DNA from: Hominenteromicrobium mulieris
GTDB lineage: Bacteria > Bacillota > Clostridia > Oscillospirales > Acutalibacteraceae
Length of the DNA: 24,000 bases
Assembly: GCF_020687165.1 (NCBI RefSeq)
Contig: NZ_JAJEQC010000005.1
Direction: 5' to 3' (one strand)
Shown: positions 2-16,139 of the stretch, in pieces
Layout of the letters: each line of letters begins with the position of its first letter
Numbering within the stretch: the stretch's first letter is position 1
Position numbers and translations under genes: made by a program
The notes under the pieces: generated by a model
The model's database searches: none
Told to the model about the DNA's origin: nothing
What the model saw: only the letters and a program-made list of their open reading frames with translations

Positions 2-3000
2 GGTCGTGTGAACAATGGAGCATACGTGCAAAGAGACAATTATGGCATGACTGAAGCTATGCGCCGCATCGTGGCTTACGGCTTTAACAACATAAATTCT
101 TTGCAGGACGGCAATAACGGTTGGTACAGCGCCGAAACCGCCAAAATGATGGTCACACAGCATCTTGTTTGGCTGGCGTCCGAAGGCTATATTACCGTAG
201 ACGGTACAAACTGGTCTTGGGGTTCCGGCATCGATAACGATGTTGAGCGCATGGCAAATCTGGCGTATAACAGTTCTGTTGTGCGCAGCTATTATGCGGA
301 GTTAAAAGATCGTCTTTTACGCTCTGAAATCGTCCCGTCCTTTGCAGGCAAAAGCAGCGACGGCAGCGATGCTCAGGAAATCGATTTACAGCTTGTAACC
401 GGTAAGTACACGGCTACTGTTACTGATACCAACGGCGTGCTGGATTTGTTCGATTTTCAGCAGGCAGGCTTTGATATTTCTCGTAACGGCAATACGCTGA
501 CGATTTCCACGAACACGCTGCCGGAGCAAGAGACAACGATTATCGGTGCAGGCTACACCGTCGGCGATAAAAACAGCATTGCCGTTTGGGAGGACAGAGA
601 CCAACAGGCCAACATTCAGCACCAAGCGACTTGTCCGGGCACAACGCAGACCATGGCGTACATCAAAATAAAAGGTGAAAAGCCTTCATATACAATCACG
701 CTCAATAAAACAAGCGCTGATTTGACGATTACTAACGGCAACCCCAATTACAGCCTTGAAGGCGCAGTATATTATGTTTATAAAGAAGCTGCGGAACCCG
801 ATTATCCGTATTGGGATTATGAGCCGTATGCGACCTTTACCACGGACGCGAACGGACACGCCGAACTTAGTAAGAAATTACAGTCAAGCAATTATGTAAC
901 TTTTGAAGCCGTAGCGCCGAAGGGCTACTGTGCAGACAGCAAAACCCATAAATTCACCGTCACGGGAGAAACAACGCTAAATGTTGTGGATGACCCGGGC
1001 ACAATCGTATTATCTGTTCATAAGAAAGACAGCGAGACGGATTCGGATCAGGCTTCAGGTAACGCTTCTTTGGCCGGAGCAGTATACCGTGTAAGCTATT
1101 TGGTCGATGGCCAAATGGTTTGTAAAGATATTACCACTAACAGCAAGGGCGTTACAGGATTAAATAAAATCCCCCTCGGCCAAATCACGGTTCAGGAAAT
1201 TACTGCACCGATAGGCTACAAGCTCGATCCGACTGTGCATACGTACAACATCACAACGCTCGGTACCGGTGATGTTTATGAACTCGAACCGGAAGACTTT
1301 ACGGAAGATGTCTTCAAGGGCAAAATTGCGCTGCACAAGCAGTATGAAACGCTCGACGACCGCGCAGAAGAACAAGGCGCAGAGTTTGATGTTTACCTCA
1401 AGTCTGCGGGCAGTTACGATGCAGCCAAAGAGACCGAGCGCGACCATATCACCACCGGCGCAGATGGCATGGCAACCACAAAGGACTTGCCTTACGGCAC
1501 ATACGTCGTGCATCAAACAAAGGGCGGCAACGGTCGTCAGCTTGTAGCCGATTTTGATGTTTCAATCTCCGAGGATGGCAAGGTTTACAGCTATGATCTT
1601 GTCAACGTACAGAAAAATGCACAGCTCAAGATCGTAAAGACTTCCGAAGACGGCGTAATCGAAGGCATTCACTTCCGCGTGACGCGCCTTGAGGATAGCT
1701 ATTCCGCAGAGTATGTAACGAATGCCGCAGGCGAAATCCTTACGGAAACACTTCCGATTTACGCGGACAAAGACGGCGCGAATAAGTATCAGTACAAGGT
1801 CGAAGAACTTGATACAGAGGAAACTTTCGGATATCAGCTTCCCGACTCGCAGACCGTAGAACTCAGCGAAGGCGAAATTGCTTCTGTAAGCTTCCATAAT
1901 GTGCCGATTGAAATCGGTACGAAGGCCACCGTTGAGGGAGAAAAAGAAGTTGATCCGCTCGATAAAGTTACGCTGACCGATACGGTATCATACACTGGCC
2001 TTGTTCCCGGTAAAGAGTACAAAGTAACCGGCGTACTGATGGATAAAAAAACCGGTGAAAAATTACTTGTGAATGGGAAAGAGATCACCGCTGAAACTAC
2101 CTTTATCGCAGAAACAAAGAATGGCAGCGTAGACGTTACCTTTATCTTTGACGCAACCGGTCTGCATGGTAAAGGAATCGTTGTTTTCGAGGATTTGTAC
2201 CGTGAAAACGCGCTGCTTGCTACCCATGCGGACATCAACGACGAAGGGCAGACCGTAAAGATTAAGAATCCTGAAATCGGAACAAAGGCAACAGCAGACG
2301 GCAAAAAAGAAATTACAGCGGATAAGATCACGATTACCGATGTTGTGAGCTATAAGGATTTGACCCCCGGTAAAGAATATAAGCTTACCGGTGTGCTGAT
2401 GAACAAAGCCACGAACGATAAGCTGCTCATCGATGGTAAAGAAATCACGGCAGAAGCTACCTTTACGCCAAAAGCTACCACCGGCGAAGTTGAGATGACG
2501 TTTACTTTCGACGCGCGTGAGCTGACGGTCGAAACTGAGGTCGTAGCTTTTGAAACGCTTTATCGCGACGGTATTGAAATTGCAGTACATGCAGACATCG
2601 AAGATGAGGGTCAGACGGTGAAGATTCTGCCGCTGCATGGCTCCATCAGCACGATCAAGGTCGATGCAGGAGACTCGCAGCACCGTCTTTCCGGCGCTGT
2701 GTTCGGCATCTATCGCGATGTAAACGGCGATGGTCGTTACACAGAGGGCATAGATACGTTTGTCGGCAATATGCGCGAAAAAGAAACCGGTGTGTATGAA
2801 CTTGATGGTTTGCTTTACGGCAAGTTTCTAATCCATGAGAAGCAGGCTCCGTCTGGCTTCTCACAGGATAAAAACTATTACAGCTTCGAAATCACAAGAG
2901 ACGGGGAAAAGGTGCAGTTTGAGGTTAAGCCCGGTATGAATTTCCCGAACAGCGCATTCCCAAAGACCGGCAGCAGTAATCACGGTGTTTATGCAGCACT

Positions 3001-3073
3001 GCTCGCTCTTGTGGTTTCCGGCCTCGGTTTAGGTGCTGTGATTTTTCACAAAGTCAAAAAAGCAAGTAAATAA
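2..3073 (+). CDS. Cell-wall-anchored multidomain surface adhesin, 5'-partial: Cna-B/SpaA-like domains, two Thr-Gln ester-bond (VaFE) domains and a C-terminal sortase signal
   Basis: The frame is open to the window edge (GGT CGT before the GTG at 8). Five motif blocks resemble Cna-B/prealbumin-fold domains (GAVYYVYKE, GAVYRVSY, GAEFDVYLK, IHFRVTR, GAVFGIYRD, each followed by a TxxxG...L.xGxY...E..AP.GY-type pattern). Two 121-aa repeats carry EIGTKAT...VvFE.LY...HADIxDEGQTV, matching the HxDxxDxxQ ester-bond signature. The C-terminus is FPKTG (2957..2971), then a hydrophobic helix (VYAALLALVVSGLGLGAVIF), then the basic tail HKVKKASK. Confidence 0.85.
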   Translation, partial: GRVNNGAYVQRDNYGMTEAMRRIVAYGFNNINSLQDGNNGWYSAETAKMMVTQHLVWLASEGYITVDGTNWSWGSGIDNDVERMANLAYNSSVVRSYYAELKDRLLRSEIVPSFAGKSSDGSDAQEIDLQLVTGKYTATVTDTNGVLDLFDFQQAGFDISRNGNTLTISTNTLPEQETTIIGAGYTVGDKNSIAVWEDRDQQANIQHQATCPGTTQTMAYIKIKGEKPSYTITLNKTSADLTITNGNPNYSLEGAVYYVYKEAAEPDYPYWDYEPYATFTTDANGHAELSKKLQSSNYVTFEAVAPKGYCADSKTHKFTVTGETTLNVVDDPGTIVLSVHKKDSETDSDQASGNASLAGAVYRVSYLVDGQMVCKDITTNSKGVTGLNKIPLGQITVQEITAPIGYKLDPTVHTYNITTLGTGDVYELEPEDFTEDVFKGKIALHKQYETLDDRAEEQGAEFDVYLKSAGSYDAAKETERDHITTGADGMATTKDLPYGTYVVHQTKGGNGRQLVADFDVSISEDGKVYSYDLVNVQKNAQLKIVKTSEDGVIEGIHFRVTRLEDSYSAEYVTNAAGEILTETLPIYADKDGANKYQYKVEELDTEETFGYQLPDSQTVELSEGEIASVSFHNVPIEIGTKATVEGEKEVDPLDKVTLTDTVSYTGLVPGKEYKVTGVLMDKKTGEKLLVNGKEITAETTFIAETKNGSVDVTFIFDATGLHGKGIVVFEDLYRENALLATHADINDEGQTVKIKNPEIGTKATADGKKEITADKITITDVVSYKDLTPGKEYKLTGVLMNKATNDKLLIDGKEITAEATFTPKATTGEVEMTFTFDARELTVETEVVAFETLYRDGIEIAVHADIEDEGQTVKILPLHGSISTIKVDAGDSQHRLSGAVFGIYRDVNGDGRYTEGIDTFVGNMREKETGVYELDGLLYGKFLIHEKQAPSGFSQDKNYYSFEITRDGEKVQFEVKPGMNFPNSAFPKTGSSNHGVYAALLALVVSGLGLGAVIFHKVKKASK
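1910..2626 (+). repeat. In-frame tandem duplication (about 363-nt period) encoding two T-Q ester-bond / VaFE domains inside the adhesin gene
   Basis: GAAATCGGTACGAAGGC starts at 1910 and GAAATCGGAACAAAGGC at 2273. The two 121-aa units align end to end (EIGTKATVEGEKE... and EIGTKATADGKKE..., both ending DEGQTVKI), with roughly half the residues identical by eye. Confidence 0.8.
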
Positions 3074-3100
3074 GTAAAACCGGCAATGTTGCCGATTCCT

Positions 3101-3196
3101 AAGCTACCCGTGCAGAGTGAGAAGGCCCATTACCGTTTGGTGATGGGCTTTTGTAATGCAGAGCGCCGGTCACAATCCCGGTGGGGCACTGCAAAT
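3101..3196. repeat. Direct repeat copy 1 (~96 nt) flanking the accessory cassette
   Basis: Hand alignment to 6290..6384 gives 8 substitutions and 1 single-base indel. The core GTGCAGAGTGAGAAGGCCCATTACCGTTTGGTGATGGGCTTTTGTAATGCAGAGCGCCGGTCACAATCCCGGTGGGGC is nearly identical in both copies. Confidence 0.9.
3125..3152 (+). terminator. Rho-independent terminator after the adhesin gene, lying inside repeat copy 1
   Basis: Stem GCCCATTACC / GGTGATGGGC (one G-U pair), loop GTTT, followed by TTTT. Confidence 0.7.
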
Positions 3197-3224
3197 TTAA
3201 TGTAATAGAAAGGTAAATGTTGAT

Positions 3225-3905
3225 ATGCATATTTTTGAAGAAGCAAGCCCAACGATTATAGGGCAGATGGTTACGCCTAAAAACATAGGAGACTTTTTTC
3301 TTGAATCATCGTACTACTTTTACTGCTGGGATGATCTTATGGAGTTGGAATACGGTCAGTGTGTTAGAAACAAGAAAAAATATTATTTTATCTCTGAGTT
3401 TGCTGAGGCAATTATGAAAAGAGGCTTTTTCTGCGACAAGCCTCTTTATGCGGAATTCACAGAAGAGCAAATTCAGAAGTATTTCAGCGGCGAGTATTCA
3501 GTCGGACAAATCTTTGCTCTTGCAATATCTCAAGCCCTTAATTTCACACCAGAACAAGTTGAAGTTTTGGAAGATAAAAACCTGAAATGCTTGGCCGTAT
3601 GGATTCTGTACGATATGGTATTGGGTACAGATGTGAGAGATATTAGAGAAATACTTAATAAACCGATTTTTATAGAAGAAAAGGAAAAGCAAATTCGGAA
3701 CTTGCATGGTAAAAGGCATTACTTACTCATTTCCCAAGAAAACTGGAAAATGGTAACAGAGTGGAACGCATGGAACAAGTGCGCCGATGACGGTACACTC
3801 AATTGTATTAAAAATTTGCGTGGTAATTTCCTTTGTTCGGATGCAGTTATGGATGATGACTATAATCTCATTGATACAAATGAAAATAGATACTTGAGCA
3901 TTTGA
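3225..3905 (+). CDS. Hypothetical protein (226 aa), AT-rich cargo gene with a weak Xre-like helix-turn-helix resemblance
   Basis: Complete ORF with a weak GAAAGG Shine-Dalgarno sequence about 11 nt upstream. The segment EEQIQKYFSGEYSVGQIFALAISQALNFTPEQV loosely resembles the recognition-helix region of Xre-family HTH proteins. I recognise no other motif. Confidence 0.5.
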   Translation: MHIFEEASPTIIGQMVTPKNIGDFFLESSYYFYCWDDLMELEYGQCVRNKKKYYFISEFAEAIMKRGFFCDKPLYAEFTEEQIQKYFSGEYSVGQIFALAISQALNFTPEQVEVLEDKNLKCLAVWILYDMVLGTDVRDIREILNKPIFIEEKEKQIRNLHGKRHYLLISQENWKMVTEWNAWNKCADDGTLNCIKNLRGNFLCSDAVMDDDYNLIDTNENRYLSI

Positions 3906-3912
3906 TTATAGA

Positions 3913-4683
3913 CTATATTAGAAGAATTTGTAAATTTGATGAATGACATAGTTTTGTGACCACATAGGGGCGACCACTTTTGGATTTTTGAAATTCTGAA
4001 AATAAGGCAACATAGCCTATTTGTTGTTTTAGGTATTTATACTCGACAGGGAGATATAAGAAAACTTTTTTAGAAATAAAGACGCGACATGCTAATGACG
4101 AAGAAGTATGTTCATTTGTTGCAATACGTCTGAGAAGTAGTGTGTGCCTATCGTCTTTGTTTTCCATTTCTATCGAGAATTTTCCATATCCTAATAGAGG
4201 AGTATTATAATCTTCATCTCGGAAACCCATTAAAAGATTCTTGGGCTGTAAGTGTTTTCCTTCTTGTGTAATTTGAGGTGGAGTTTTTTCAATATGAAAA
4301 TTAGTAGCGTGGTTAGTATTTGTTTTACATATAGAAGTTTTTTGTGGTTTGACATGAGAAATTCGCGTAAGAAGGCTGTGTAACTGACGTGATACATAGT
4401 CTCTATCTTCAGAGTTAAAAGAGTTCATAATTGTTTTTGCTCTATTTGTGGACAGATAAAGTTGGGCTAAGGGGCAATCTTCAGCATGTGATTGTTTCTG
4501 TGCAGTTCGCAAATATGCAGGTTGATCGTTTACATATGTAAGTTTAGCCTCTTTGCAGATAGGGCAGACCATGTACGGTTCATACTCAGCGCGAAATAAA
4601 GGAATATTGCGATATATTAGCGCTATTTGAAAAACAGAAAGTTCCGATTTTTTGTTTTCTAAGTAAGCATAATCAAATTTCAT
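3913..4683 (-). CDS. Hypothetical zinc-ribbon protein (256 aa), convergent with 3225..3905
   Basis: Complete ORF with a GAGG Shine-Dalgarno sequence upstream and its own near-consensus promoter. The N-terminal CPICKEAKLTYVNDQPAYLRTAQKQSHAEDC is a CxxC...HxxxC metal-binding pattern, reminiscent of the N-terminal zinc ribbons of CoiA-like or nuclease-associated proteins. I do not recognise the C-terminal 170 aa. Confidence 0.55.
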   Translation of the reverse strand: MKFDYAYLENKKSELSVFQIALIYRNIPLFRAEYEPYMVCPICKEAKLTYVNDQPAYLRTAQKQSHAEDCPLAQLYLSTNRAKTIMNSFNSEDRDYVSRQLHSLLTRISHVKPQKTSICKTNTNHATNFHIEKTPPQITQEGKHLQPKNLLMGFRDEDYNTPLLGYGKFSIEMENKDDRHTLLLRRIATNEHTSSSLACRVFISKKVFLYLPVEYKYLKQQIGYVALFSEFQKSKSGRPYVVTKLCHSSNLQILLI

Positions 4684-4733
4684 CTTCAGTATCGCCTCTA
4701 ATAGTCATATAACTGTTGGTAAATAACATAAAT

Positions 4734-4762
4734 ATTGTATCTAATTTGACTGTACAATGCAA
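4734..4762 (-). promoter_or_regulatory. SigA-type promoter for the 3913..4683 gene
   Basis: The minus strand reads TTGCAT (4762..4757), a 17-nt spacer, then TACAAT (4739..4734), about 50 nt upstream of the start codon at 4683. Confidence 0.6.
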
Positions 4763-4865
4763 TATAAAGTTTGACGGTAAGGAAAAAGCAGTACGTGGAT
4801 GTTCGTTGACGGGAAGACGCTGTACATAAGTAAAGCGTGACCGGCAATATTGCCGGTTTTATACG

Positions 4866-4899
4866 AAAAAGGAGCGTCCACAACTTTAGGGACGCTCCT
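4866..4899 (-). terminator. Rho-independent terminator of the dinJ-yafQ operon
   Basis: The minus strand reads AGGAGCGTCC, a loop, GGACGCTCCT, then TTTTT, about 30 nt after the toxin stop at 4929. Confidence 0.7.
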
Positions 4900-4928
4900 C
4901 GCAGATGGATAATGTTGAATTTGAACTT

Positions 4929-5201
4929 TCAGAACAGATCACTATGTGATCCGGTTCTGGTTAAGCAGAGGATGAGCTCATCGTTTTGAATTTCATAAAT
5001 TAGAAGCCAATCGGGGGTGATATGGCACTCCCTGCAACCGGCATAATTGCCAGACAAGTTGTGATCTCGATAATTTTCCGGCAAAGGCTTTTGTTCAGCC
5101 AGAATGGTGATAACCTCTTCCAGAAGCCGAATATCGTAACCCCTTTTGACGATTCGCTTGTAATCTTTTTTGAAGGTCGTCTGATACTTAATCGTCAGCA
5201 T
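4929..5201 (-). CDS. yafQ: Type II toxin, RelE/YafQ-family mRNA interferase (90 aa)
   Basis: MLTIKYQTTFKKDYKRIVKRGYDI...LPENYRDHNLSGNYAGCRECHITPDWLLIYEI..DELILCLTRTGSHSDLF is the characteristic YafQ/RelE pattern (F.KDxKR, DH.L.G....RECHI.PDWLLIY, RTGSHSDLF). The start overlaps the antitoxin gene. Confidence 0.9.
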   Translation of the reverse strand: MLTIKYQTTFKKDYKRIVKRGYDIRLLEEVITILAEQKPLPENYRDHNLSGNYAGCRECHITPDWLLIYEIQNDELILCLTRTGSHSDLF

Positions 5202-5460
5202 TCAGATCCTCCATCAGCTCTTTTACGGAGGAAAAACCTTTGCTCATTCCAATTCCGTTTTTTGCGTCTTCGATAGCTTTTCTTGTTACGGCGTTCGGTA
5301 CTTCGGCGCCGATTTCAAAAGGAATGCGATATTCGCGTACTGCTTTTTTTGCGAAAACGGTAAAAGCGGTCGTCATCGTCATGCCCATATCAGTGCAGAA
5401 AGCCTCGAATTGTGTTTTTAAATCGCTGTCCATGCGAATATTGACGTTTGTTTGTGCCAT
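5188..5460 (-). CDS. dinJ: Type II antitoxin, RelB/DinJ family (90 aa)
   Basis: An internal ATG at 5460 is preceded by AGGAGG (5474..5469). MAQTNVNIRMDSDLKTQFEAFCTDMGMTMTTAFTVFAKKAVREYRIPFEI matches the DinJ ribbon-helix-helix N-terminus. It overlaps the toxin start by 14 nt. The longer track ORF running to 5601 is a spurious N-terminal extension. Confidence 0.88.
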   Translation of the reverse strand: MAQTNVNIRMDSDLKTQFEAFCTDMGMTMTTAFTVFAKKAVREYRIPFEIGAEVPNAVTRKAIEDAKNGIGMSKGFSSVKELMEDLNADD

Positions 5461-5484: not shown

Positions 5485-5513
5485 ATTATAGCACTTTGTA
5501 ATGATACTGTCAA
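5485..5513 (-). promoter_or_regulatory. Perfect-consensus SigA promoter for dinJ-yafQ
   Basis: The minus strand reads TTGACA (5513..5508), exactly 17 nt, then TATAAT (5490..5485), about 25 nt upstream of the dinJ start. Confidence 0.75.
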
Positions 5514-5595: not shown

Positions 5596-6291
5596 ATGCA
5601 AAAAGTTGTTGGATTTTTCAGTAAACCGGAAAATCTGTTTGTGCTGACACTTTTGATAGGGCTTTTTACGGGGACGTATAAGGTGGTGTCAAAGGCCTCA
5701 AATCACAACAATAGCTTGTATCAAAGGGTCAGCTCACCTATATGTTTCTATCTTAGGCTTTTTGGGTATGTATATACCCTTCCTTGGATAGGTAGTTTGT
5801 TGATTTCGGGAGGAAATTATGAAGAATGGTTGCAGGCATCAAAGAACACAGAGCCATATAGATTTTTCATAATTGGTTTGGTGATGATCTTCGGGAGTTA
5901 TGCGATGTATATTCCGGTGCTGCTTGAGCGCATTGCACGCGGGATTATGAATAAGGTTTCAATTAAAAATGATCTTGAACTCATCAATTCAAAATTTGGC
6001 ACAAGCTATACGGCAAGCGACTATATGTATGGTAAAGGGCACATTAAGCAAATTGTAACTTATATAAGCATAGGAGAAGAAAGTATTGCGGAGCTGATTT
6101 CAAACCCAAAACTTTCAGATGCAAAGAGAACTGTAATTCTTGACCTTCTTAGTCGTGGACTTACAGTAGACCAGATTAAGCCCTACATACAGTCGGACGA
6201 TCCGTATACAGCGGAACAGCTGCAATTTGAACTCTACAAATTGTTTTTTACCCAAATAGGGATCGTCAATAGCCGCAATATAACAAAATAA
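5596..6291 (+). CDS. Hypothetical membrane protein (231 aa): three N-terminal TM helices and a soluble C-terminal domain of about 110 aa
   Basis: There is a strong Shine-Dalgarno sequence (AAGAGGAG) 6 nt before the ATG. Hydrophobic segments are LFVLTLLIGLFTGTY, YLRLFGYVYTLPWIGSLLISG and FFIIGLVMIFGSYAMYIPVLL. I do not recognise the C-terminal domain; SIAELISNPKLSDAKRTVILDLLSRGLTVDQI is faintly HTH-like. It is transcribed divergently from the TA operon. Confidence 0.6.
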   Translation: MQKVVGFFSKPENLFVLTLLIGLFTGTYKVVSKASNHNNSLYQRVSSPICFYLRLFGYVYTLPWIGSLLISGGNYEEWLQASKNTEPYRFFIIGLVMIFGSYAMYIPVLLERIARGIMNKVSIKNDLELINSKFGTSYTASDYMYGKGHIKQIVTYISIGEESIAELISNPKLSDAKRTVILDLLSRGLTVDQIKPYIQSDDPYTAEQLQFELYKLFFTQIGIVNSRNITK

Positions 6292-6384
6292 CCTGCCTGT
6301 GCAGAGTGAGAAAGCTCATTACCGTTTGGTGATGGGCTTTTGTAATGCAGAGCGCTGGTCACAATCCCGGCGGGGCCTGTAAAT
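6290..6384. repeat. Direct repeat copy 2 (~95 nt) flanking the accessory cassette
   Basis: It aligns to 3101..3196 (see copy 1) and starts at the last bases of the stop codon of the 5596..6291 gene. Confidence 0.9.
6314..6341 (+). terminator. Rho-independent terminator inside repeat copy 2, after the membrane-protein gene
   Basis: Stem GCTCATTACC / GGTGATGGGC (two G-U pairs), loop GTTT, followed by TTTT. Confidence 0.65.
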
Positions 6385-7833: not shown

Positions 7834-9813
7834 GTGAATTTTTTGGCAATATCGAGAGATCAGGTTGATGAGATCAAAAGCCGCGTGAGCATTATAGATG
7901 TTGCAGCAGAACGTGTGAATCTATCGCGGCACGGTTCAACCATGTCGTGCTGTTGTCCGTTCCATCAGGAAAAAACACCGTCATGCGTATTGTATGAGAA
8001 GACCAATTCCTTTTACTGCTTCGGCTGCGGCACGAGCGGCGACGTCATATCTTTTATTCGCGGTACGGATAATCTCAGTTACGTGGAGGCGGTGCAGCAG
8101 CTCGCCCAGCGTGCCGGAATAACGATTGATGCCAAAGGCGCACAGCTCAATCAGCGTGAGCAGGAGCTCAGAGATCGTATTCGTGCGTGCAACCGAGAGG
8201 CGGCACGTTACTTCTTCCGTTCGCTTACACAGGACGATGAAGGCAGTGTCGGGCGAACTTATTTGCTGAATGAACGCGGTTTGAGCATGGCCGCTGTACG
8301 ACATTTTGGTTTAGGTTATGCGAAGCCGGAAAGCTTTGGGCTTGTGAATTATCTGCGCGATAAAGGCTTTACGGATGATGAGATGATAACCGCAAATCTT
8401 GCGTACCAAAGTAAAACCGGGCACGTTATGGATCGGTTCCGAGACCGAATCATGTACCCGATTTTTGATACAGTCGGCAATGTAATTGCGTTTGGTGGAC
8501 GCGCCCTGAACAAAGAGGACAAGGCAAAATACATAAACACCAACACCACGCCGGTATTCAGAAAGTCCAATAATCTGTACGGATATAACTTCGCACGCAA
8601 GGCGCACAGCGACCATTTGATACTCGCAGAAGGGTACATGGACGTGATCGCGCTGCAAACAGCGGGCTTTGCTGGTGCGGTCGCTTCACTCGGTACATCG
8701 TTGACGGAGGAACAAGCAAAGCTGATTGGGCGGAGCTGCAAGGAGCTTACTATTTGTTATGACAGCGACAGTGCGGGCATCAGAGCAACGCAAAGAGCTA
8801 TACAGGTTTTGCGTTCTGCGTGCCCAGAGTTGCGCGTCAGCGTGGCTTCCTTGGGCGAAGGTAAAGACCCGGATGAGTTCATAAAAATGCACTCGGAGGA
8901 CGGAGCAGAACGTCTTGCTGAGGCTTTCAAAGCAGCGATAAGCGATACCGAATACCGGCTACAAATGTGCAAAAACGGGTTGGACATGAACGTGAATAAA
9001 GACCGTTTGACTTATGCCGTTGAAGCGGTGCGTGTGTTGGCGACGGTCGAAAACCCGGTGGAACAGGATTTATTTGCGGCACAAATTGCTGCGGAGGTCG
9101 GAGTTGGACGTGAGAGTATCTTAGCACAGGTGCAGGCAGCTGCGACAGACCCGGCAAATAAAACCGTGCCGGAAGAAATTAAAGACGAGGAAATTTTTGA
9201 GCCGGAAGAAGAACCTACACAGCGCTATCATGCGTTTATTCGCCCGGTTTCTGACGCAGAAAGTGAAGTGGTAGCCTTTGCGGATGTCATTATAAACGAA
9301 GACTACCGCATCAACGGCGTGCGTCTGGTGTTGGATGAACACAATCGATTTTCGGCCTTGATGCCCGCGTATCTTGCTAAAGATAGGCGTGAATGGGTTC
9401 CGTACGTCGAGCTGAAGCCGGAGATTGAAAGGGAAATGACGGCGTTCCTTGCACGTAATTTTGATTTCAACTCGGAGGTTGAAGTTATCGGCGGCGGTAC
9501 GGCGATAGACGTCGGAGAGACAAAGCTCACGCTGCGGAAGGCTGCAAACCGCAATACGGTTAAAGCGTATGCCGAGCTGCAAAACGATGTGTTTGCGCTC
9601 AAATACGGCAAGATCATGGAGGGCAAACGCGGGTATTTCTATTCACCGCCGAGCATGGGAACGTACACAGATCAGGACGGCAATAAGCAATATCAGTATG
9701 CGTATGGGTTTGCTTCCGCACCGGAGCGCACAAGAATTTCGGGAGAAATTAAGAAACAATACGAGCTCATGTGCAAAAAAAACAAGCGGGTCTATGAAGC
9801 AAAAATCAAATAG
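7834..9813 (+). CDS. DnaG-type DNA primase (CHC2 zinc finger plus TOPRIM) with a C-terminal tandem SpoVG-like extension
   Basis: CCPFHQEKTPSCVLYEKTNSFYCFGCGTSGDVISF is the CHC2 zinc finger. RDRIMYPIFDTVGNVIAFGGR is the primase core. LILAEGYMDVIAL and ICYDSDSAGIRAT are the TOPRIM motifs. The true start may be the TTG at 7843, 9 nt after AAAGGAG. See the findings for the C-terminal region. Confidence 0.85.
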   Translation: MNFLAISRDQVDEIKSRVSIIDVAAERVNLSRHGSTMSCCCPFHQEKTPSCVLYEKTNSFYCFGCGTSGDVISFIRGTDNLSYVEAVQQLAQRAGITIDAKGAQLNQREQELRDRIRACNREAARYFFRSLTQDDEGSVGRTYLLNERGLSMAAVRHFGLGYAKPESFGLVNYLRDKGFTDDEMITANLAYQSKTGHVMDRFRDRIMYPIFDTVGNVIAFGGRALNKEDKAKYINTNTTPVFRKSNNLYGYNFARKAHSDHLILAEGYMDVIALQTAGFAGAVASLGTSLTEEQAKLIGRSCKELTICYDSDSAGIRATQRAIQVLRSACPELRVSVASLGEGKDPDEFIKMHSEDGAERLAEAFKAAISDTEYRLQMCKNGLDMNVNKDRLTYAVEAVRVLATVENPVEQDLFAAQIAAEVGVGRESILAQVQAAATDPANKTVPEEIKDEEIFEPEEEPTQRYHAFIRPVSDAESEVVAFADVIINEDYRINGVRLVLDEHNRFSALMPAYLAKDRREWVPYVELKPEIEREMTAFLARNFDFNSEVEVIGGGTAIDVGETKLTLRKAANRNTVKAYAELQNDVFALKYGKIMEGKRGYFYSPPSMGTYTDQDGNKQYQYAYGFASAPERTRISGEIKKQYELMCKKNKRVYEAKIK

Positions 9814-10945: not shown

Positions 10946-11395
10946 ATGCAGAAAGAAGTGAGACAAATAAGAAAAGGCGAATACAAATACCCTTACCGTT
11001 TAGAGTTGCGCTTAAATGAAACACAAATGGCACGTCTGCAATCCTTGGCGAGCAAATCCGGCTTATCGATGTCGGCGTATGTGCGGCAGCTTATCGACGG
11101 TGTGCTTCCGCAGGAACGCCCGCCGTTGGATTTTTATAAGATGCTGACAGAGCTGCGTTATATTGGCAACAACATGAACCAGCTTACACGCATAGCACAT
11201 GCGACCGGCAGAATCGACAGAGAGAAATTTGAGCGGCTGACCGATGAGATCAAGCCGCTGGCATCTATGCTGTATCGCTACGTTACGGAGCCAATCAAAC
11301 GCGACCCGATGACTTCGGAGCTTGGGACGTATATCCGTAAGTCCGACCAAAAGGCACTGAAAGAAAAACGGGAGGAAGAACGAAAGTGGCGGTAA
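10946..11395 (+). CDS. mobC: MobC-family relaxosome accessory protein (ribbon-helix-helix)
   Basis: LRLNETQMARLQSLASKSGLSMSAYVRQLI is RHH-like. LRYIGNNMNQLTRIAHATG matches the MobC motif (L..iG.NlNQiar). It overlaps the relaxase start by 10 nt. Confidence 0.85.
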   Translation: MQKEVRQIRKGEYKYPYRLELRLNETQMARLQSLASKSGLSMSAYVRQLIDGVLPQERPPLDFYKMLTELRYIGNNMNQLTRIAHATGRIDREKFERLTDEIKPLASMLYRYVTEPIKRDPMTSELGTYIRKSDQKALKEKREEERKWR

Positions 11396-11824
11396 CAAAA
11401 ATCTGGAAGATCAACGGCTGGATCGGCGACTGCCTGCTTTACATCGAAAATCCGAACAAGACGCAGAACCCGTTGGTGATCGGTGATCCGAAATTAAAAG
11501 AGGAAGAATACCAATCTCTGACGGATGTGATCGAGTATGCGGAAGACGGCAACAAAACCGTGCGGGATACTGAGCGTTTTGTGTCCGGCGTTAACTGCGA
11601 TGCAGAAACGGCGCGGCAGGAAATGATTTTAGCAAAAAATGCGTTCGACAAAAACGACGGCATTTGTGCCTACCACGCCATACAGAGCTTTGCGCCGGGA
11701 GAGGTCACGCCGGAAACGGCGCACGAGATCGGTATTCGGCTCGCAAAAGAAATGTGGGGTGAACGGTATCAAGTGCTTGTTGCAACGCATTTAGATCATG
11801 AGCATATCCACAACCACTTCGTTA
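11386..11824 (+). CDS. Relaxase (MobA/VirD2 family), exon 1
   Basis: GTG start. The N-terminus MAVTKIWKI... and the histidine motif VATHLDHEHIHNHFV are typical of relaxase/mobilisation nuclease domains. The coding sequence is broken after 11824 by GTGCG, the group II intron 5' end. The residues translated from 11825 to 11874 are read-through into the intron. Confidence 0.85.
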
Positions 11825-12379
11825 GTGCGCCCATAAGGGGCAGAGTAAATCCGCTTAGCAAGCGGCAGGTGTGAGGTTTCAGGCCTGTGGTCAACGGCTA
11901 ACCTGGCGGGGAAACCCAAAGGGGACAGCAGCATGACCGTAAAGCTGCAAGTTGGCAAGTTGCCGTGCCACGACTGAGCAGCAAGACCAAAAGTTCATAT
12001 AAGGATGAAACCTAAACTGGCTGAACGGCAGTCCGAGGGACATTTGTGGTGGTCGTAACGGAAGGCAGCTATACCCGTTACGCTGTGCATCTCACCTGTA
12101 GAAACATGAGCAGGATGAGCGAAACCGAATGCACAGTCCGTATGTATCAGCATAAAAGGACGAAAACCGCATCCGACAATGAACAATGCTTTTTTACTCT
12201 GCTGCTAAATGGGGATTGCCTAAGTTGGAACGCTCACAAGAGCTATGGGCGTAGGCCCTGAATATCCAATATGGCAACGGAGCCGCCGTAGTAGTCCGAG
12301 CGTATTAATGGCACGCACATGGCGAAGGGCGGCAGTTCATTCAATTCAATACAACAGAAAGGAAGGTGCGTGAGGCACT

Positions 12380-14197
12380 ATGAGAGATCCAGAAAATGTA
12401 TTGAACAGTCTGCAAGAACATTCAGCTCAATCCGGCTATGTCTATGACAGGTTGTACCGCAACCTGTTCAATCGGGAATTTTTCTTACGGGCATATCAGA
12501 ATATTTATGCCAGTCAGGGAAACATGACCGCAGGCACAGACGGAAAAACCATCGACGCAATGAGCCTTGAAAGAATCGACAGGCTTATTGCAACCCTGAA
12601 AGACGAATCCTACCAGCCCAAACCGTCCAGACGGACATATATCCCTAAGAAGAATGGAAAACTCCGTCCTCTGGGTATTCCGTCCATTGACGACAAGCTG
12701 GTACAGGAAGTTGTCCGTATGCTGTTGGAATCCATCTATGAGAACAGCTTTGAGGACGCCTCCCATGGCTTTCGGCCTGACAGAAGTTGTCACACAGCTT
12801 TGAGGATGATTCAAAATCGCTTTACCAGATGCAAGTGGTTTGTTGAGGGTGACATTAAAGGATTCTTCGACAATATTGACCACAATGTCATGATTGGCAT
12901 CCTTCGCAAGAGAATTAAAGATGAGCGTTTTCTGCGCCTTATCCGTAAATTTCTCAACGCAGGATATATGGAAGATAACCAACTGCATCAAAGCTACAGC
13001 GGCACTCCGCAGGGCGGCATCATTAGTCCCATTCTAGCCAATATCTATCTCGACCAGTTCGACAAATATATGGCTGAATACAAGAAACGGTTTGACCGTG
13101 GGAACAAGCGAGCCGTCAATGTGGAATACCATAAGCTGAGCGCAAAGAGAATCCGACTCAAAAGGAAGCTGGCAAAGGCACAGTCTGAGGAAGAAAAGCA
13201 ATCCCTTTTGGAAAGCATCCGGGAACTGGATAAGGTACACAAATCCATCCCCTGCAAAAATCCAATGGATACAAATTTCCGCAGACTGCAATACGTCCGT
13301 TACGCTGACGATTTTCTTATCGGTATCATCGGAGCCAAAGAGGATGCACAGGCTGTTAAGCAGGAAATCGGCGTATATATCGCCGAACAGTTGAAACTGG
13401 AACTGTCGGAAGAAAAGACGCTGGTCACTAAAGCAACAGACCGTGCAAAATTCTTGGGATTTGACATCAGGGTCACACCGCAGAGCAATCACACCAAAAA
13501 GACAAAAAGCGGTTCCACAGCCCGAAACTACAGCGGCCATGTAATGCTGGAAGTTCCGACTTCTGTCATTCAAAAAAAGCTGCTGGAACTGGGAGCCATG
13601 AGAATTGATGTTCGCAATGGAACAGAGATTTGGCAACCCACGTATCGTGGAAAACTTGTCGGACGAACAGACCTGAGTATCCTAGACCAGTACAATGGTG
13701 AGGTGCGGGGATTCTGTAATTATTATGCGATTGCAAACAATCGCTCTAAGCTGCACAAGTTCCGCTATATCATGGAGTACAGTTTCTATAAAACCTTGGC
13801 CTGTAAATACCGTACAACCAAAGGCAAAATTATTGCTCAATATCGTATTGTCAAGGACATCGGGGTAAAATTCCAGGACAAGCATGGAAATGAGCGCATC
13901 CGACTACTGTGGAAGGACAGTCTTGCAAGAGACCCCTATCCGCTGGGAAAAGAAGCAGATATTATCCATAAGCCGAAAGGCATCCTGAAAAAGCCCAGTC
14001 TCGGCGCACGATTAAAAGCAAATCGGTGTGAATGGTGCGGAAAAGAAACTTCAGCGTTGGTAATGCACCAAGTTAGAACGCTGAAAGAGCTGGATGAAAG
14101 CCAACCGTGGGCAGTTTTCATGAAGAGGATTAACCGAAAAACTTTGGTGGTCTGTGAAAGTTGTCACACGAAAATTCACGGTGCAGGCTGTGAATGA
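12380..14197 (+). CDS. ltrA: Group II intron reverse transcriptase/maturase with a C-terminal HNH endonuclease domain (605 aa)
   Basis: RT motifs TDGKTID, RPLGIPSIDDKLVQE, GTPQGGIISPILANIYL and YVRYADDFLIG are present. A maturase/X region follows (RGFCNYYAIANN). The C-terminus is a zinc/HNH module (CEWCGKE...HQV...VVCESCHTKIHG). Confidence 0.95.
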   Translation: MRDPENVLNSLQEHSAQSGYVYDRLYRNLFNREFFLRAYQNIYASQGNMTAGTDGKTIDAMSLERIDRLIATLKDESYQPKPSRRTYIPKKNGKLRPLGIPSIDDKLVQEVVRMLLESIYENSFEDASHGFRPDRSCHTALRMIQNRFTRCKWFVEGDIKGFFDNIDHNVMIGILRKRIKDERFLRLIRKFLNAGYMEDNQLHQSYSGTPQGGIISPILANIYLDQFDKYMAEYKKRFDRGNKRAVNVEYHKLSAKRIRLKRKLAKAQSEEEKQSLLESIRELDKVHKSIPCKNPMDTNFRRLQYVRYADDFLIGIIGAKEDAQAVKQEIGVYIAEQLKLELSEEKTLVTKATDRAKFLGFDIRVTPQSNHTKKTKSGSTARNYSGHVMLEVPTSVIQKKLLELGAMRIDVRNGTEIWQPTYRGKLVGRTDLSILDQYNGEVRGFCNYYAIANNRSKLHKFRYIMEYSFYKTLACKYRTTKGKIIAQYRIVKDIGVKFQDKHGNERIRLLWKDSLARDPYPLGKEADIIHKPKGILKKPSLGARLKANRCEWCGKETSALVMHQVRTLKELDESQPWAVFMKRINRKTLVVCESCHTKIHGAGCE

Positions 14198-14202
14198 ATA
14201 GA

Positions 14203-14236
14203 GAGCCGGATACAGCGAGAGTTGTAAGTCCGGTTC
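14203..14236 (+). ncRNA. Group II intron domain V (catalytic hairpin)
   Basis: GAGCCGGATACAGCGAGAGTTGTAAGTCCGGTTC is a 34-nt hairpin with the conserved AGC triad context, a GNRA-like loop region and the CGGTTC 3' arm, placed just after the IEP stop codon as expected. Confidence 0.85.
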
Positions 14237-14297
14237 GGGGGCGAGTGCCTGGAAACCTACCGCAGCAATGCGGCAAGGCGCTGGGTACTTAGCCTAC

Positions 14298-15343
14298 TCA
14301 ACTCGGTTTCGTTTCTGGACGGCAAACGCTTATGGAAAGAGAAAAACTATTGGCAAATGAGAACGGTTTCGGATGCACTTTGCAGAGAGTATGGTTTATC
14401 ACTTATCAAGCCGGTGCGCCGAGGTATGCCGTATGCAGCTTGGCAGGCAGAAAAAGAAGGAAAGCCGAACCGGCGTAAAGCGCTACGCGAAGACATAGAC
14501 CGCATACTCGCAAATGAAAATATAGAATCGCTCGAAGCTTTTTACGATACGCTGCGGGCGTACGGGTATGCCGTTATGACGGATCGAAAGTATGTTGCGA
14601 TTTGTCCGCCGGGCGGTGAACGAAATATTCGTTTGCAGTCGCTTGGAGAAAACTACGAGCCGGAAGCGCTGCACTTGCGCATTCTCCGTATCAAAGCAGA
14701 CCGACTGCTCGGTAAAACCAAAGTTATAGAACAGCCGATGACGCCCAAAAGGAAAATGCGCTTGCAAGGAACGGTACGTCGAAAATCTAAAGCGCATGGA
14801 ATACGGGCGCTTTATTATAAATGGCTTTATTATCTCGGTGTTTTTAAGCGGCGTCCCAAAGTATACGGCAGCGCGTTTGCCACGGCGCGTTGGCAACTGA
14901 ACGCATACATAAAGCAGTTCGATTATGTTGCGGCGCACAATATTAAAACGCGCGATGACGTAGAGCAACGGTTACGCGTAGTGCAGCACGAAATCTCCGG
15001 GCAGATTGATGAGCGGGAAGAAATAAGAGCAGTGCTGCGGCGTTTGGAGACAGGCGATGCTGAAATACAGGAGCAGCTTGAGAAAATCGAGAAGATCAAC
15101 GCACAACTCAAAAAGCTGCGGACAGAAGCAAAGCTGTGTGTGCAAATCCTCGAGCAGCAGCCGCAGATCAAATCCAAGATCGACAAAGCACATGAAGTAA
15201 AAACATTTGAAACAGAAAGGGGAAAAGAAAATGGACGAACAAGCGATCATCACCTTGAGCATCGAAGGAACGAAGCTGCTCCTACGCGGGAGCAAAGAAG
15301 TTCTGGCAGCGCTCGTAGCAGCGATCCGATACAGCGCAGATAA
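14298..15343 (+). CDS. Relaxase, exon 2
   Basis: Joining the A at 11824 to the TC at 14298 gives ...HIHNHFV-I-NSVSFLDGKRLWKEKNYWQMRTVSDALCREYGLS..., a typical relaxase continuation. 439 + 1046 = 1485 nt, which is 495 codons including the stop. The frame matches the track ORF 14357..15343. Confidence 0.85.
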
Positions 15344-16139
15344 AATGATCCCGGCGCGAAAATGCCGGGATTTTTTGACGAGTACATCGGAGGTGCGCTT
15401 TATCTCGATGAGCGATGAAGCCATCGAAACATTCAAAAAGGCTGCACGACCCTATGGCTTGCGGTACTTGCATTTGCACGACAGTAACGGAGATGGGTTA
15501 TCGACCTTAATGGTGCGCGGCGAAGATGCAGCAGTTATCAACCGCCTGATCGAGCGCAATAAACTGGCTGTGCTGACGGATGTTACACAGGCGGAAATCG
15601 AACGTGATCCGTCTAAGGCTGCGGACATCAACGAACCGATTCCGGAGGTTGTGATTGGAAAAGATCAAGTTCGAGTGCAGGATGCGGTTAAAGAGGCACG
15701 CGGCAGCGCACAAGACCTTTTAAAGCCGGAGCCAAACCCTACGAAAGGGCAGACGGAACAGAAAAGCCGTCTGTCCTCCAAAGGCTTGAAGACATCCGAA
15801 ATGGAACAAGAGGCTGAAGAACTTTGGGCAGATGTTACGGCGTCTATTGATAAGGACTTTGCAGAGCGAATCGAAGAAAAGCGTCAGCACAATTTTGAAC
15901 TTTATAACCAAGACGACCCGCTGCTCGGCGAGAAGGTTGTGAAAACCAAACGTACCGTGCCGGTACAGGACAAGCCATCTGTTATGAAAAAGCTGGAGGC
16001 TGCAAAAAACGTCAACACGCAAAAAGAAGCGAGAATTGCGGAAGCTGTGCGCCAGATGCAGGCAGGTGGACGTACTTCAAATACCGATAAGGTCATTCAG
16101 AAGACGCCGAAGGTGAAGCCGCAAAAGCTGAGAAGGTAG
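15231..16139 (+). CDS. pcfB: PcfB / DUF3801-family conjugation protein
   Basis: MDEQAIITLSIEGTKLLLRGSKEVLAALVAAI...FISMSDEAIETFKKAARPYGLRYLHL...TLMVRGEDAAVINRLIE matches the DUF3801 pattern as I remember it. The ATG at 15231 follows a GAAAGGGGAAAAG Shine-Dalgarno sequence. The gene overlaps the relaxase 3' end. Confidence 0.7.
   Translation: MDEQAIITLSIEGTKLLLRGSKEVLAALVAAIRYSADKMIPARKCRDFLTSTSEVRFISMSDEAIETFKKAARPYGLRYLHLHDSNGDGLSTLMVRGEDAAVINRLIERNKLAVLTDVTQAEIERDPSKAADINEPIPEVVIGKDQVRVQDAVKEARGSAQDLLKPEPNPTKGQTEQKSRLSSKGLKTSEMEQEAEELWADVTASIDKDFAERIEEKRQHNFELYNQDDPLLGEKVVKTKRTVPVQDKPSVMKKLEAAKNVNTQKEARIAEAVRQMQAGGRTSNTDKVIQKTPKVKPQKLRR

Follow-up and report, generated by a model that had tools for sequence, protein, structure and literature searches.

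Do two counter-oriented genes that nearly touch at their 3' ends on a conjugative element form a functional unit, and if so, of what kind? The question is raised by a 24,000-nucleotide (nt) stretch of contig NZ_JAJEQC010000005.1 of Hominenteromicrobium mulieris (assembly GCF_020687165.1), which we call the window. It contains two ATG-initiated open reading frames (ORFs) arranged tail to tail, one on the forward strand (3225-3905, 226 amino acids (aa)) and one on the reverse strand (3913-4683, 256 aa). NCBI annotates both products as hypothetical proteins of Hominenteromicrobium sp. An initial annotation, made from the DNA sequence, had placed them on a conjugative element and had speculated about an abortive-infection, defence or exclusion pair. 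The setting was recognized correctly, as the window encodes a relaxase, NikA, a type IV coupling protein (T4CP), PrgI, VirB4, ArdC-N, a DnaG-type primase and a DUF3801 protein. The reported AT richness is also real, the G+C content being 0.35-0.41 over positions 3001-5000 versus 0.45-0.52 across most of the backbone. We refer to the reverse-strand gene as the Zn gene, after the zinc site of its product, and to the forward-strand gene as the partner gene. Our best explanation, which we put forward tentatively, is that the pair represents a conserved, previously undescribed two-gene module of clostridial mobile elements, in which a counter-transcribed nucleic-acid binder and its partner would modulate the DNA transactions of the element.

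A word-indexed search, which returned near-identical copies only, had suggested that the proteins were orphans. For the Zn protein this was overturned by an exhaustive phmmer search, which returned 137 relatives at E <= 1e-3, nearly all of them 245-270 aa long and alignable end to end with 21-37% identity. Zn loci, designated below by L numbers, were then gathered with a degenerate DNA pattern for MKFE[ED]A[YF]...CPxxC and with exact-protein look-ups. The pattern gave 15 loci; L005, L007, L014, L015 and, later, L020 proved to be chance matches. According to a family hidden Markov model, a partner-family gene (170-230 aa) adjoins the Zn gene in 10 of the 13 distinct loci and is located on the opposite strand in all 10. 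The tail-to-tail arrangements range from a 33-nt overlap to a 17-nt gap, and the head-to-head ones have 29-88 nt between the start codons (Table 1). Opposite-strand adjacency is the conserved feature of the pair, and a co-directional arrangement was never seen in the adjacent loci. The initial annotation had proposed to look for co-occurrence and synteny of homologs, and both are found, with the adjacent module present in very divergent loci. It had also proposed to look for enrichment next to defence genes, which the loci do not support: most Zn-family contexts are conjugation operons with sortase, adhesin and type IV secretion system (T4SS) genes, not defence islands. L040 holds the Zn protein most closely related to that of the window, and its gene is the only one oriented against the surrounding T4SS, surface-protein and sortase genes.

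The 256-aa Zn protein has no match among Pfam, NCBIfam, PHROG or PADLOC models or PDB sequences, and no Pfam domain is consistently matched across the members of its family. Its conservation pattern is informative nonetheless. In an alignment of 62 sequences, C40, C43, H66, C70 and G167 are invariant, and the N-terminal MKF, P41, K148 (in KRxPRKRID), D158, F165, Y166, C199 and V207 are nearly so. The first four residues form the motif C40-x2-C43 ... H66-x3-C70, that is, four conserved Cys/His ligands with the CxxC ... HxxxC spacing, and the N-terminal zinc site of the initial annotation is thus well founded. Also conserved in the family are the basic KRxPRKRID motif and a K.FYG.V...W patch, and the linker between the domains is basic in the family consensus. 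The window protein retains 23 of the 31 strongly conserved positions, including all of those in the zinc domain except A56 (P in the consensus).

An AlphaFold model calculated from the single sequence was unusable, with a predicted local distance difference test score (pLDDT) of 30. Given the family alignment, AlphaFold2 produced a model with a mean pLDDT of 89.9 and a predicted template modelling score (pTM) of 0.77. The N-terminal part of this model is a beta/alpha domain that carries the four zinc ligands, and it is followed by two helices and a low-confidence linker (~110-145). The C-terminal part is modelled as a barrel composed of strands (E) and a stretch of short helices (H): E162-176, E179-185, E197-203, H205-216, E221-233 and E241-245 (pLDDT 89-98). 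Its topology, beta1-3/alpha/beta4-5, is that of an oligonucleotide/oligosaccharide-binding (OB) fold, and at the level of fold we assign the predicted domain to this class. The top 50 Foldseek matches in the PDB are all OB folds, superposed over ~100-110 residues with a probability of up to 1.0; they include the anticodon-binding N-domains of Asp-, Lys- and Asn-tRNA synthetases, SSB, PriB, the MCM N-domain and OBodies. Most of the named matches among the BFVD viral models are likewise OB folds, with phage SSBs and baculovirus LEF-3 among them.

The initial annotation had looked to the C-terminal part for a nuclease or other effector fold. The structural matches of the 256-aa protein contain no nuclease or other enzymatic fold, and residues ~150-256 are predicted to form the OB fold instead. 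We therefore describe the Zn gene product as a predicted cytoplasmic protein in which a disordered linker connects an N-terminal Cys2-His-Cys zinc domain to a C-terminal OB fold. We infer from this modelled architecture that it is a nucleic-acid binder, most likely of single-stranded DNA (ssDNA) or RNA, rather than an enzyme. The role of a nuclease-type defence effector is unlikely.

The 226-aa partner protein is similarly featureless in database searches. Pfam, NCBIfam, PHROG and PADLOC models and PDB sequences gave no match to it, and nor did the plasmid collection. The assembly blocks indexed with the exact protein number 3438 and come mostly from human-gut metagenomes. Two truncated database copies (P0008 and P0010) were rejected as contig-end artefacts, as they end or start in translated Nextera adaptor (LSLIHI, MCIRDS). 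The partner neighbours at the Zn loci are homologous to one another (blastp E 1e-46 to 5e-6) and align with the 226-aa protein over the full length; a profile built from them, with the window protein excluded, matches it with an hhalign probability of 96.2% (E 2.7e-9). Only M1, C46 and L128 are invariant in this alignment, and there are no conserved residues of catalytic type. The Xre-like helix-turn-helix (HTH) suggested initially did not reach significance. Residues 81-110 match HTH_3 (PF01381) with E 0.26 and 11.8 bits against a cut-off of 23, such a match occurs in 1 of 8 family members, and the best PDB sequence match of this region has E 0.77 (2o38_A). The same region is the most conserved stretch of the partner family, and an HTH here is possible but unproven. 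The partner gene encodes a small, non-enzymatic-looking protein and is part of the forward-strand conjugation operon.

Both ORFs are genuine genes, in line with the coding assignment made initially. A comparison of the partner gene with a 91.6%-identical homolog gives 32.5 synonymous and 22.5 non-synonymous differences, or a ratio of non-synonymous to synonymous changes per site (pN/pS) of 0.16, which is indicative of purifying selection. Taken together with the length of the ORFs in DNA of 35% G+C and the full-length conservation of the Zn family, this value shows that both are more than chance ORFs.

A closer look at the junction shows how the two genes would be transcribed. As initially described, the stop codons are separated by 7 nt that contain no hairpin: the terminator scan lists none at the junction, and neither 3880-3945 nor 3860-3970 folds better than shuffled sequences, whichever strand is taken (z +1.2, +0.65, +0.83, -0.39). 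The claim of a missing terminator is correct for the space between the genes, but terminators are not missing from the locus, as they flank the pair on both sides (3075-3099 and 4836-4864). The hairpin at 3075-3099 is weaker and has no U tail when read on the + strand. The one at 4840-4860 lies just beyond the candidate promoter of the Zn gene and has its UUUUAU tail on the + strand only. The two palindromes (3075-3099 and 4842-4861), which bracket the pair, are related to each other by a 20-nt inverted repeat, I1, that is 95% complementary. In addition, the relB-yafQ terminator at 4866-4898 insulates the Zn gene from - strand transcription arriving from upstream.

As the junction has no terminator and the terminator-like hairpins are located outside the pair, each mRNA should extend antisense across the other gene. 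Read-through from the partner gene would end at the 4836-4864 hairpin, after passing over the whole of the Zn gene together with its promoter. Transcripts from the Zn promoter would, in turn, cross the entire partner gene antisense and end at 3075-3099. This layout of opposite-strand neighbours, a junction without a terminator and terminators past the partner gene is of the excludon type, and judging by sequence it is present in the window, L040 and L003. On the Zn strand of L040, a strong terminator is first met beyond both partner paralogs. L003 has identical 28-nt antisense-strand terminator hairpins ~110 nt upstream of both full Zn paralogs. Excludons and the prgQ/prgX pair of pCF10 consist of opposite-strand neighbours with overlapping transcripts that oppose each other, and in pCF10 this opposition controls conjugation. 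The genes described here resemble them in being opposite-strand neighbours, with the overlap deduced from the junction and the flanking hairpins. Given such mutual antisense extension, the expression of the Zn protein would be anti-correlated with the transcription of the operon and the partner gene, in the manner of an excludon-type or prgQ/prgX-type switch. The partner protein would probably bind or counteract the Zn protein. The likely role of the latter would be to modulate ssDNA transactions (transfer, rolling-circle replication or establishment) of its own element or of a competitor's.

Several observations weigh against this explanation. The OB-fold matches are modest, with E values of 2e-3 to 5e-5 and template modelling (TM) scores to the target of at most 0.54. 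Four of the six beta1-beta2 patch positions are replaced in the window protein (K163L, F165G, V169F and W173M), and the PRKRID motif is missing from it. The antisense overlap is itself deduced from sequence alone. The + strand hairpin at 4840-4860 has a tail of only four U residues and was not called by the terminator scanner, and L044 has no clear flanking terminators. The motif TTGCAT-17-TACAAT is present upstream of the Zn gene as initially reported, but to call it near-consensus was an overstatement: it is a weak site that matches at 8 of 12 positions, which is below the scanner threshold. Furthermore, it counts for little because the scanner found 10 sites where 10.2 are expected by chance. 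Zn homologs in L040 and L009 have 10/12 sites at the equivalent position. The sample of loci is small (n=13), and the search pattern favours one branch of the Zn family. Three Zn genes have no adjacent partner, namely L003b (a second paralog), L012 (a recombinant with a breakpoint 22 nt past the Zn stop) and L018 (in a prophage position, after tail-fibre genes). Finally, the 91.6%-identical copy of the partner is found in more than 1000 assembly blocks, where it has no Zn-family gene within 8 kb.

The relatives without a Zn gene and the naturally occurring alleles show how the pair came about and how it is kept. In the Zn-less relative, the partner gene comes after two sortase genes and before SpoVG. 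The homology of the window to this relative ends at 3875, ten codons before the partner stop codon, which indicates that recombination brought in the Zn gene together with the final codons of a partner gene. That the partner 3' end travels with the Zn gene is shown by breakpoints in two lineages. Our attempt to describe the segment bounded by two twister ribozymes (see below) as a simple cargo cassette turned out to be only partly right, since the partner gene and the gene of a 231-aa membrane protein belong to the backbone in relatives. The inserted material proper is the Zn gene plus relB-yafQ. A 264-aa counter-oriented gene of the Zn-less L021 was set aside, as its product is unrelated and lipoprotein-like.

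In order to obtain an unbiased sample of alleles, we used the exact partner protein (3438 blocks) and took the 26 longest contigs; 7 distinct places were compared and 19 similar ones were collapsed. The 256-aa Zn gene is present in all 26 contigs. Across the 7 places the pair differs by 0-9 nt, while the adjacent adhesin gene is 62-97% identical and in places has diverged to 62-66% in ungapped alignment. A look-up with a 171-aa truncated product, which samples Zn alleles with a bias, gave a number of independent disruptions, namely Q54*, Q74*, frameshifts, an 11-nt deletion and two distinct 5' deletions, in islands that are identical in other respects. The partner is intact in all of them, and Q54* and Q74* are each the sole difference in 3301 nt. 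The suspicion that the Zn gene is toxic or counter-selected, which arose from these recurrent broken alleles, was dropped as the gene is intact throughout the unbiased sample. The commonest truncation is found in 33 blocks, compared to 3438 for the exact partner protein. Hence, the pair is kept, and only a small minority of alleles is broken.

A more specific version of our explanation can be formulated, in which the pair is a new type of control module. A single-strand-binding inhibitor of transfer, replication or superinfection would be encoded antisense within the conjugation operon, and mutual full-length antisense RNAs combined with protein antagonism would make a bistable switch. Operon transcription would then silence the inhibitor, and the inhibitor's own transcription would silence the partner. 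We consider this version possible but doubtful.

Rather unlikely, in our estimate, is a defence, abortive-infection or exclusion pair, in which the Zn protein would sense or sequester the single-stranded nucleic acid of an invading phage or plasmid and the partner would regulate or neutralize it. It is true that the pair is located in a variable AT-rich segment beside RelB-YafQ, that relatives are found beside RelB-YoeB (L043), beside MazF and a pemK RNA with AAA_15 nearby (L010) and in a prophage position (L018), and that the module has been exchanged between diverged backbones. However, PADLOC-DB 2.0 gave 0 matches for the window proteins and, across 62 Zn and 8 partner family members, only single-member matches with E > 9e-4. 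Neither protein has an enzymatic effector domain, the contexts are mostly conjugation operons, and more than 1000 blocks have the partner as a backbone gene on its own. The Zn family is also absent from the phage collection and from the pattern scans of IMG/VR. One Zn-family member, P0046, has two weak matches on a Streptococcus salivarius megaplasmid, both called 'hypothetical protein', and no phage match.

The two explanations that follow are weaker still. It is improbable that the Zn protein serves establishment or anti-defence, binding ssDNA and coating or protecting the transferred strand in the recipient like a plasmid SSB or ArdC, with the partner as a co-factor. The resemblance of the OB fold to SSBs speaks for it, as do the location of the segment directly upstream of ArdC-N/M78 and the DnaG-type primase, the presence of ParB_N, DUF7768 and ArdA at the same position in the sister element L002, and an SSB that adjoins the module in L008. 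Leading-region genes share one orientation, however, and the Zn gene is transcribed against the direction of ArdC, the primase and the other operon genes. Moreover, the 256-aa protein has neither a match to the Pfam SSB family (PF00436) nor an acidic C-terminal tail of the SSB type (its C-terminus is ...SSNLQILLI), and many family members are not near anti-restriction genes.

We regard as quite improbable a toxin-antitoxin-like addiction module in which the Zn protein is toxic, the partner is the antidote and antisense transcription is an added layer of control. The independent loss-of-function alleles of the Zn gene with an intact partner, and the occurrence of the partner as an orphan, are what such a module would produce. 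These alleles came from the truncation-biased sample, however, whereas all 26 contigs of the unbiased one are intact, and yafQ is also broken in one contig. The Zn gene occurs without an adjacent partner in L012 and L018, in 10 of 10 loci the two genes are counter-oriented rather than co-directional, the proteins exceed the usual size of type II components 2- to 3-fold, and neither has a Pfam or NCBIfam toxin or antitoxin match. Lastly, a chance meeting of unrelated neighbours through an insertion accident is very unlikely: the breakpoint within the last 10 codons of the partner gene and the independent existence of the partner would fit it, but ten distinct Zn genes (20-37% identity) have a partner-family gene as the immediate neighbour, always on the other strand, which has a probability of ~1e-3 under random orientation, and the partner 3' end moves with the Zn gene in two lineages.

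Returning to the module of a nucleic-acid binder and its partner, we compared it with known systems. The predicted C-terminal domain of the Zn protein superposes on the OB folds of SSB and PriB. T4 gp32 is a zinc-containing OB protein, and the combination of a zinc site with an OB fold recalls gp32, DBD-C of RPA70 and the MCM N-domain. The zinc site of the window protein is located in a separate N-terminal domain and not inside the barrel. The window proteins are unrelated to PrgX, and no peptide pheromone system is evident, which sets the locus apart from prgQ/prgX. Type II toxin-antitoxin systems such as RelB-YafQ are likewise two-gene accessory modules on mobile elements and possibly antagonistic pairs, but the genes described here are on opposite strands, their proteins are much larger and there is no known toxin or antitoxin domain. 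Small OB-fold accessory proteins have been described in conjugative elements of Gram-positive Firmicutes, namely PrgE of pCF10 (PMC11137577) and OrfL/OrfM of ICESt3 (PMC12614216). Their DNA binding is weak or atypical, and in DNA processing they work together with a partner, as in the OrfL-OrfM complex (PMC11137577, PMC12614216). They have no sequence match to the window protein, they are without the N-terminal Cys2-His-Cys domain, and their genes are co-directional in the transfer operon whereas the Zn gene is counter-oriented. In terms of sequence, the pair belongs to none of these systems.

Table 1. Positions of features in the window and spacing of the pair at the Zn loci (dG, folding free energy; z, score relative to shuffled sequences).
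Feature	Position	Strand	Details
Partner gene	3225-3905	+	Co-directional with conjugation operon; member of unannotated ~170-230 aa family
Spacer TTATAGA	3906-3912		7 nt between stop codons; identical in 7 independent contigs
Zn gene	3913-4683	-	Predicted zinc domain 1-110, disordered linker ~110-145, OB fold ~147-255
Candidate Zn-gene promoter TTGCAT-17-TACAAT	-35 at 4762-4757, -10 at 4739-4734	-	3/6 + 5/6 = 8/12
Palindromic hairpin	3075-3099	-	Terminator only on - strand, with U-rich tail on - strand; dG -12.2 kcal/mol, z -4.1
Hairpin ACCGGCAATATTGCCGGT then UUUUAU	4836-4864 (stem ~4840-4860)	+	Terminator-like; dG -14.2 kcal/mol, z -2.9
TQ/SpaA adhesin gene	8-3073		Upstream of partner gene
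Type-P5 twister, copy 1	3111-3181	+	Rfam RF02684, 49 bits, E 1.4e-7; between adhesin and partner genes
Type-P5 twister, copy 2	6300-6370	+	Rfam 44.1 bits, E 2.5e-6
relB-yafQ type II toxin-antitoxin operon	4929-5460 (yafQ 4929-5201, relB 5188-5460)	-	Pfam YafQ_toxin 2.8e-38, RelB 1.2e-13
relB-yafQ promoter	5513..5485		Extended -10, perfect 12/12
relB-yafQ intrinsic terminator	4866-4898	-	dG -20.9 kcal/mol, z -4.4, U5 tail
Membrane-protein gene (231 aa)	5596-6291		Backbone gene, also in Zn-less relative
ArdC-N plus M78 peptidase, then DnaG-type primase			Segment with the pair is directly upstream of them
DUF3801 protein	15207-16139		Separate protein of the window
Convergent pair, window			7-nt gap
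Convergent pair, L003a			1-nt gap
Convergent pair, L008			1-nt gap
Convergent pair, L009 group			6-nt gap
Convergent pair, L013/L044			17-nt gap
Convergent pair, L040 group			33-nt overlap
Divergent pair, L004			43 nt between start codons
Divergent pair, L006			29 nt between start codons
Divergent pair, L010			58 nt between start codons
Divergent pair, L013/L044			88 nt between start codons
Divergent pair, L046/47			31 nt between start codons

The two twisters of the window, which both score above the Rfam gathering score of 37.6, are located inside an 88-nt direct repeat (3100-3187 and 6289-6376, 92% identical) that brackets the AT-rich segment with the pair, relB-yafQ and the membrane-protein gene. 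All variation among five twister copies keeps the stems, and none of the 27 predicted pairs is broken. The sister elements L002, L029 and L032 have a single twister. L021/L022 have none, and a tRNA gene (8968-9040) is found at the comparable operon position. Twisters are not a feature of the other Zn-family loci, and the role of bacterial twisters in general is still described as largely elusive (PMC6765202).

A few further observations concern the surroundings of the pair. A promoter-like TTTACA-18-TATAAT (11/12) at 3905-3934 on the - strand has its -10 element overlapping the partner stop codon and points antisense into the whole partner gene; we treat it as a lead only, since the total number of sites matches chance. 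In L029 and L032, two different junctions inside the Zn gene (corresponding to 4457-4481 in the window) join the adhesin-twister-partner block to other backbone genes, which are a lysozyme/M23 protein gene in L029 and, two genes away, a coupling protein gene in L032. Both loci have lost relB-yafQ, the membrane-protein gene and the second twister. L003 (2870-6903 of a contig from a Clostridia metagenome-assembled genome) carries two full Zn paralogs plus a truncated third one. L043 has the order relB-toxin-Zn gene as in the window, with YoeB as the toxin and with Zn proteins that are just 37% identical. In L010 (7287-7859), a pemK RNA motif (Rfam 58.4 bits) and a MazF-like toxin gene are convergent to the Zn gene, and an AAA_15 ATPase is encoded nearby.

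Elsewhere in the window, the primase gene (7834-9813) has a weak SpoVG-like C-terminal region (residues 563-643), and in related elements SpoVG is a stand-alone gene right after the partner gene (8692-8964 in L021). The relaxase gene, of the MOB type, is split by a group II intron (11386-15343; Rfam 57.5 bits), with the N-terminal relaxase part at 11386-11874, a reverse transcriptase/maturase ORF with RVT_1, maturase and HNH domains at 12380-14197, and domain V-VI at 14201-14297. The DUF3801 protein presumably corresponds to the HelP family of ICEBs1.

In summary, the pair is a real, ordinary-looking, uncharacterised module that deserves attention for its conserved counter-transcription more than for any role in defence. 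The island with the pair is common in public gut assemblies, yet both families are annotated as hypothetical only. If the supposed effector binds nucleic acids and is not a nuclease, as the structural model suggests, binding and interaction assays would be informative, and not toxicity and plaque assays alone. If the counter-transcription is as described, the locus would be a clean natural case of gene control by obligatory antisense overlap. Furthermore, should the Zn protein indeed control transfer or replication, it would offer a new way to influence horizontal gene flow among Clostridia of the gut.

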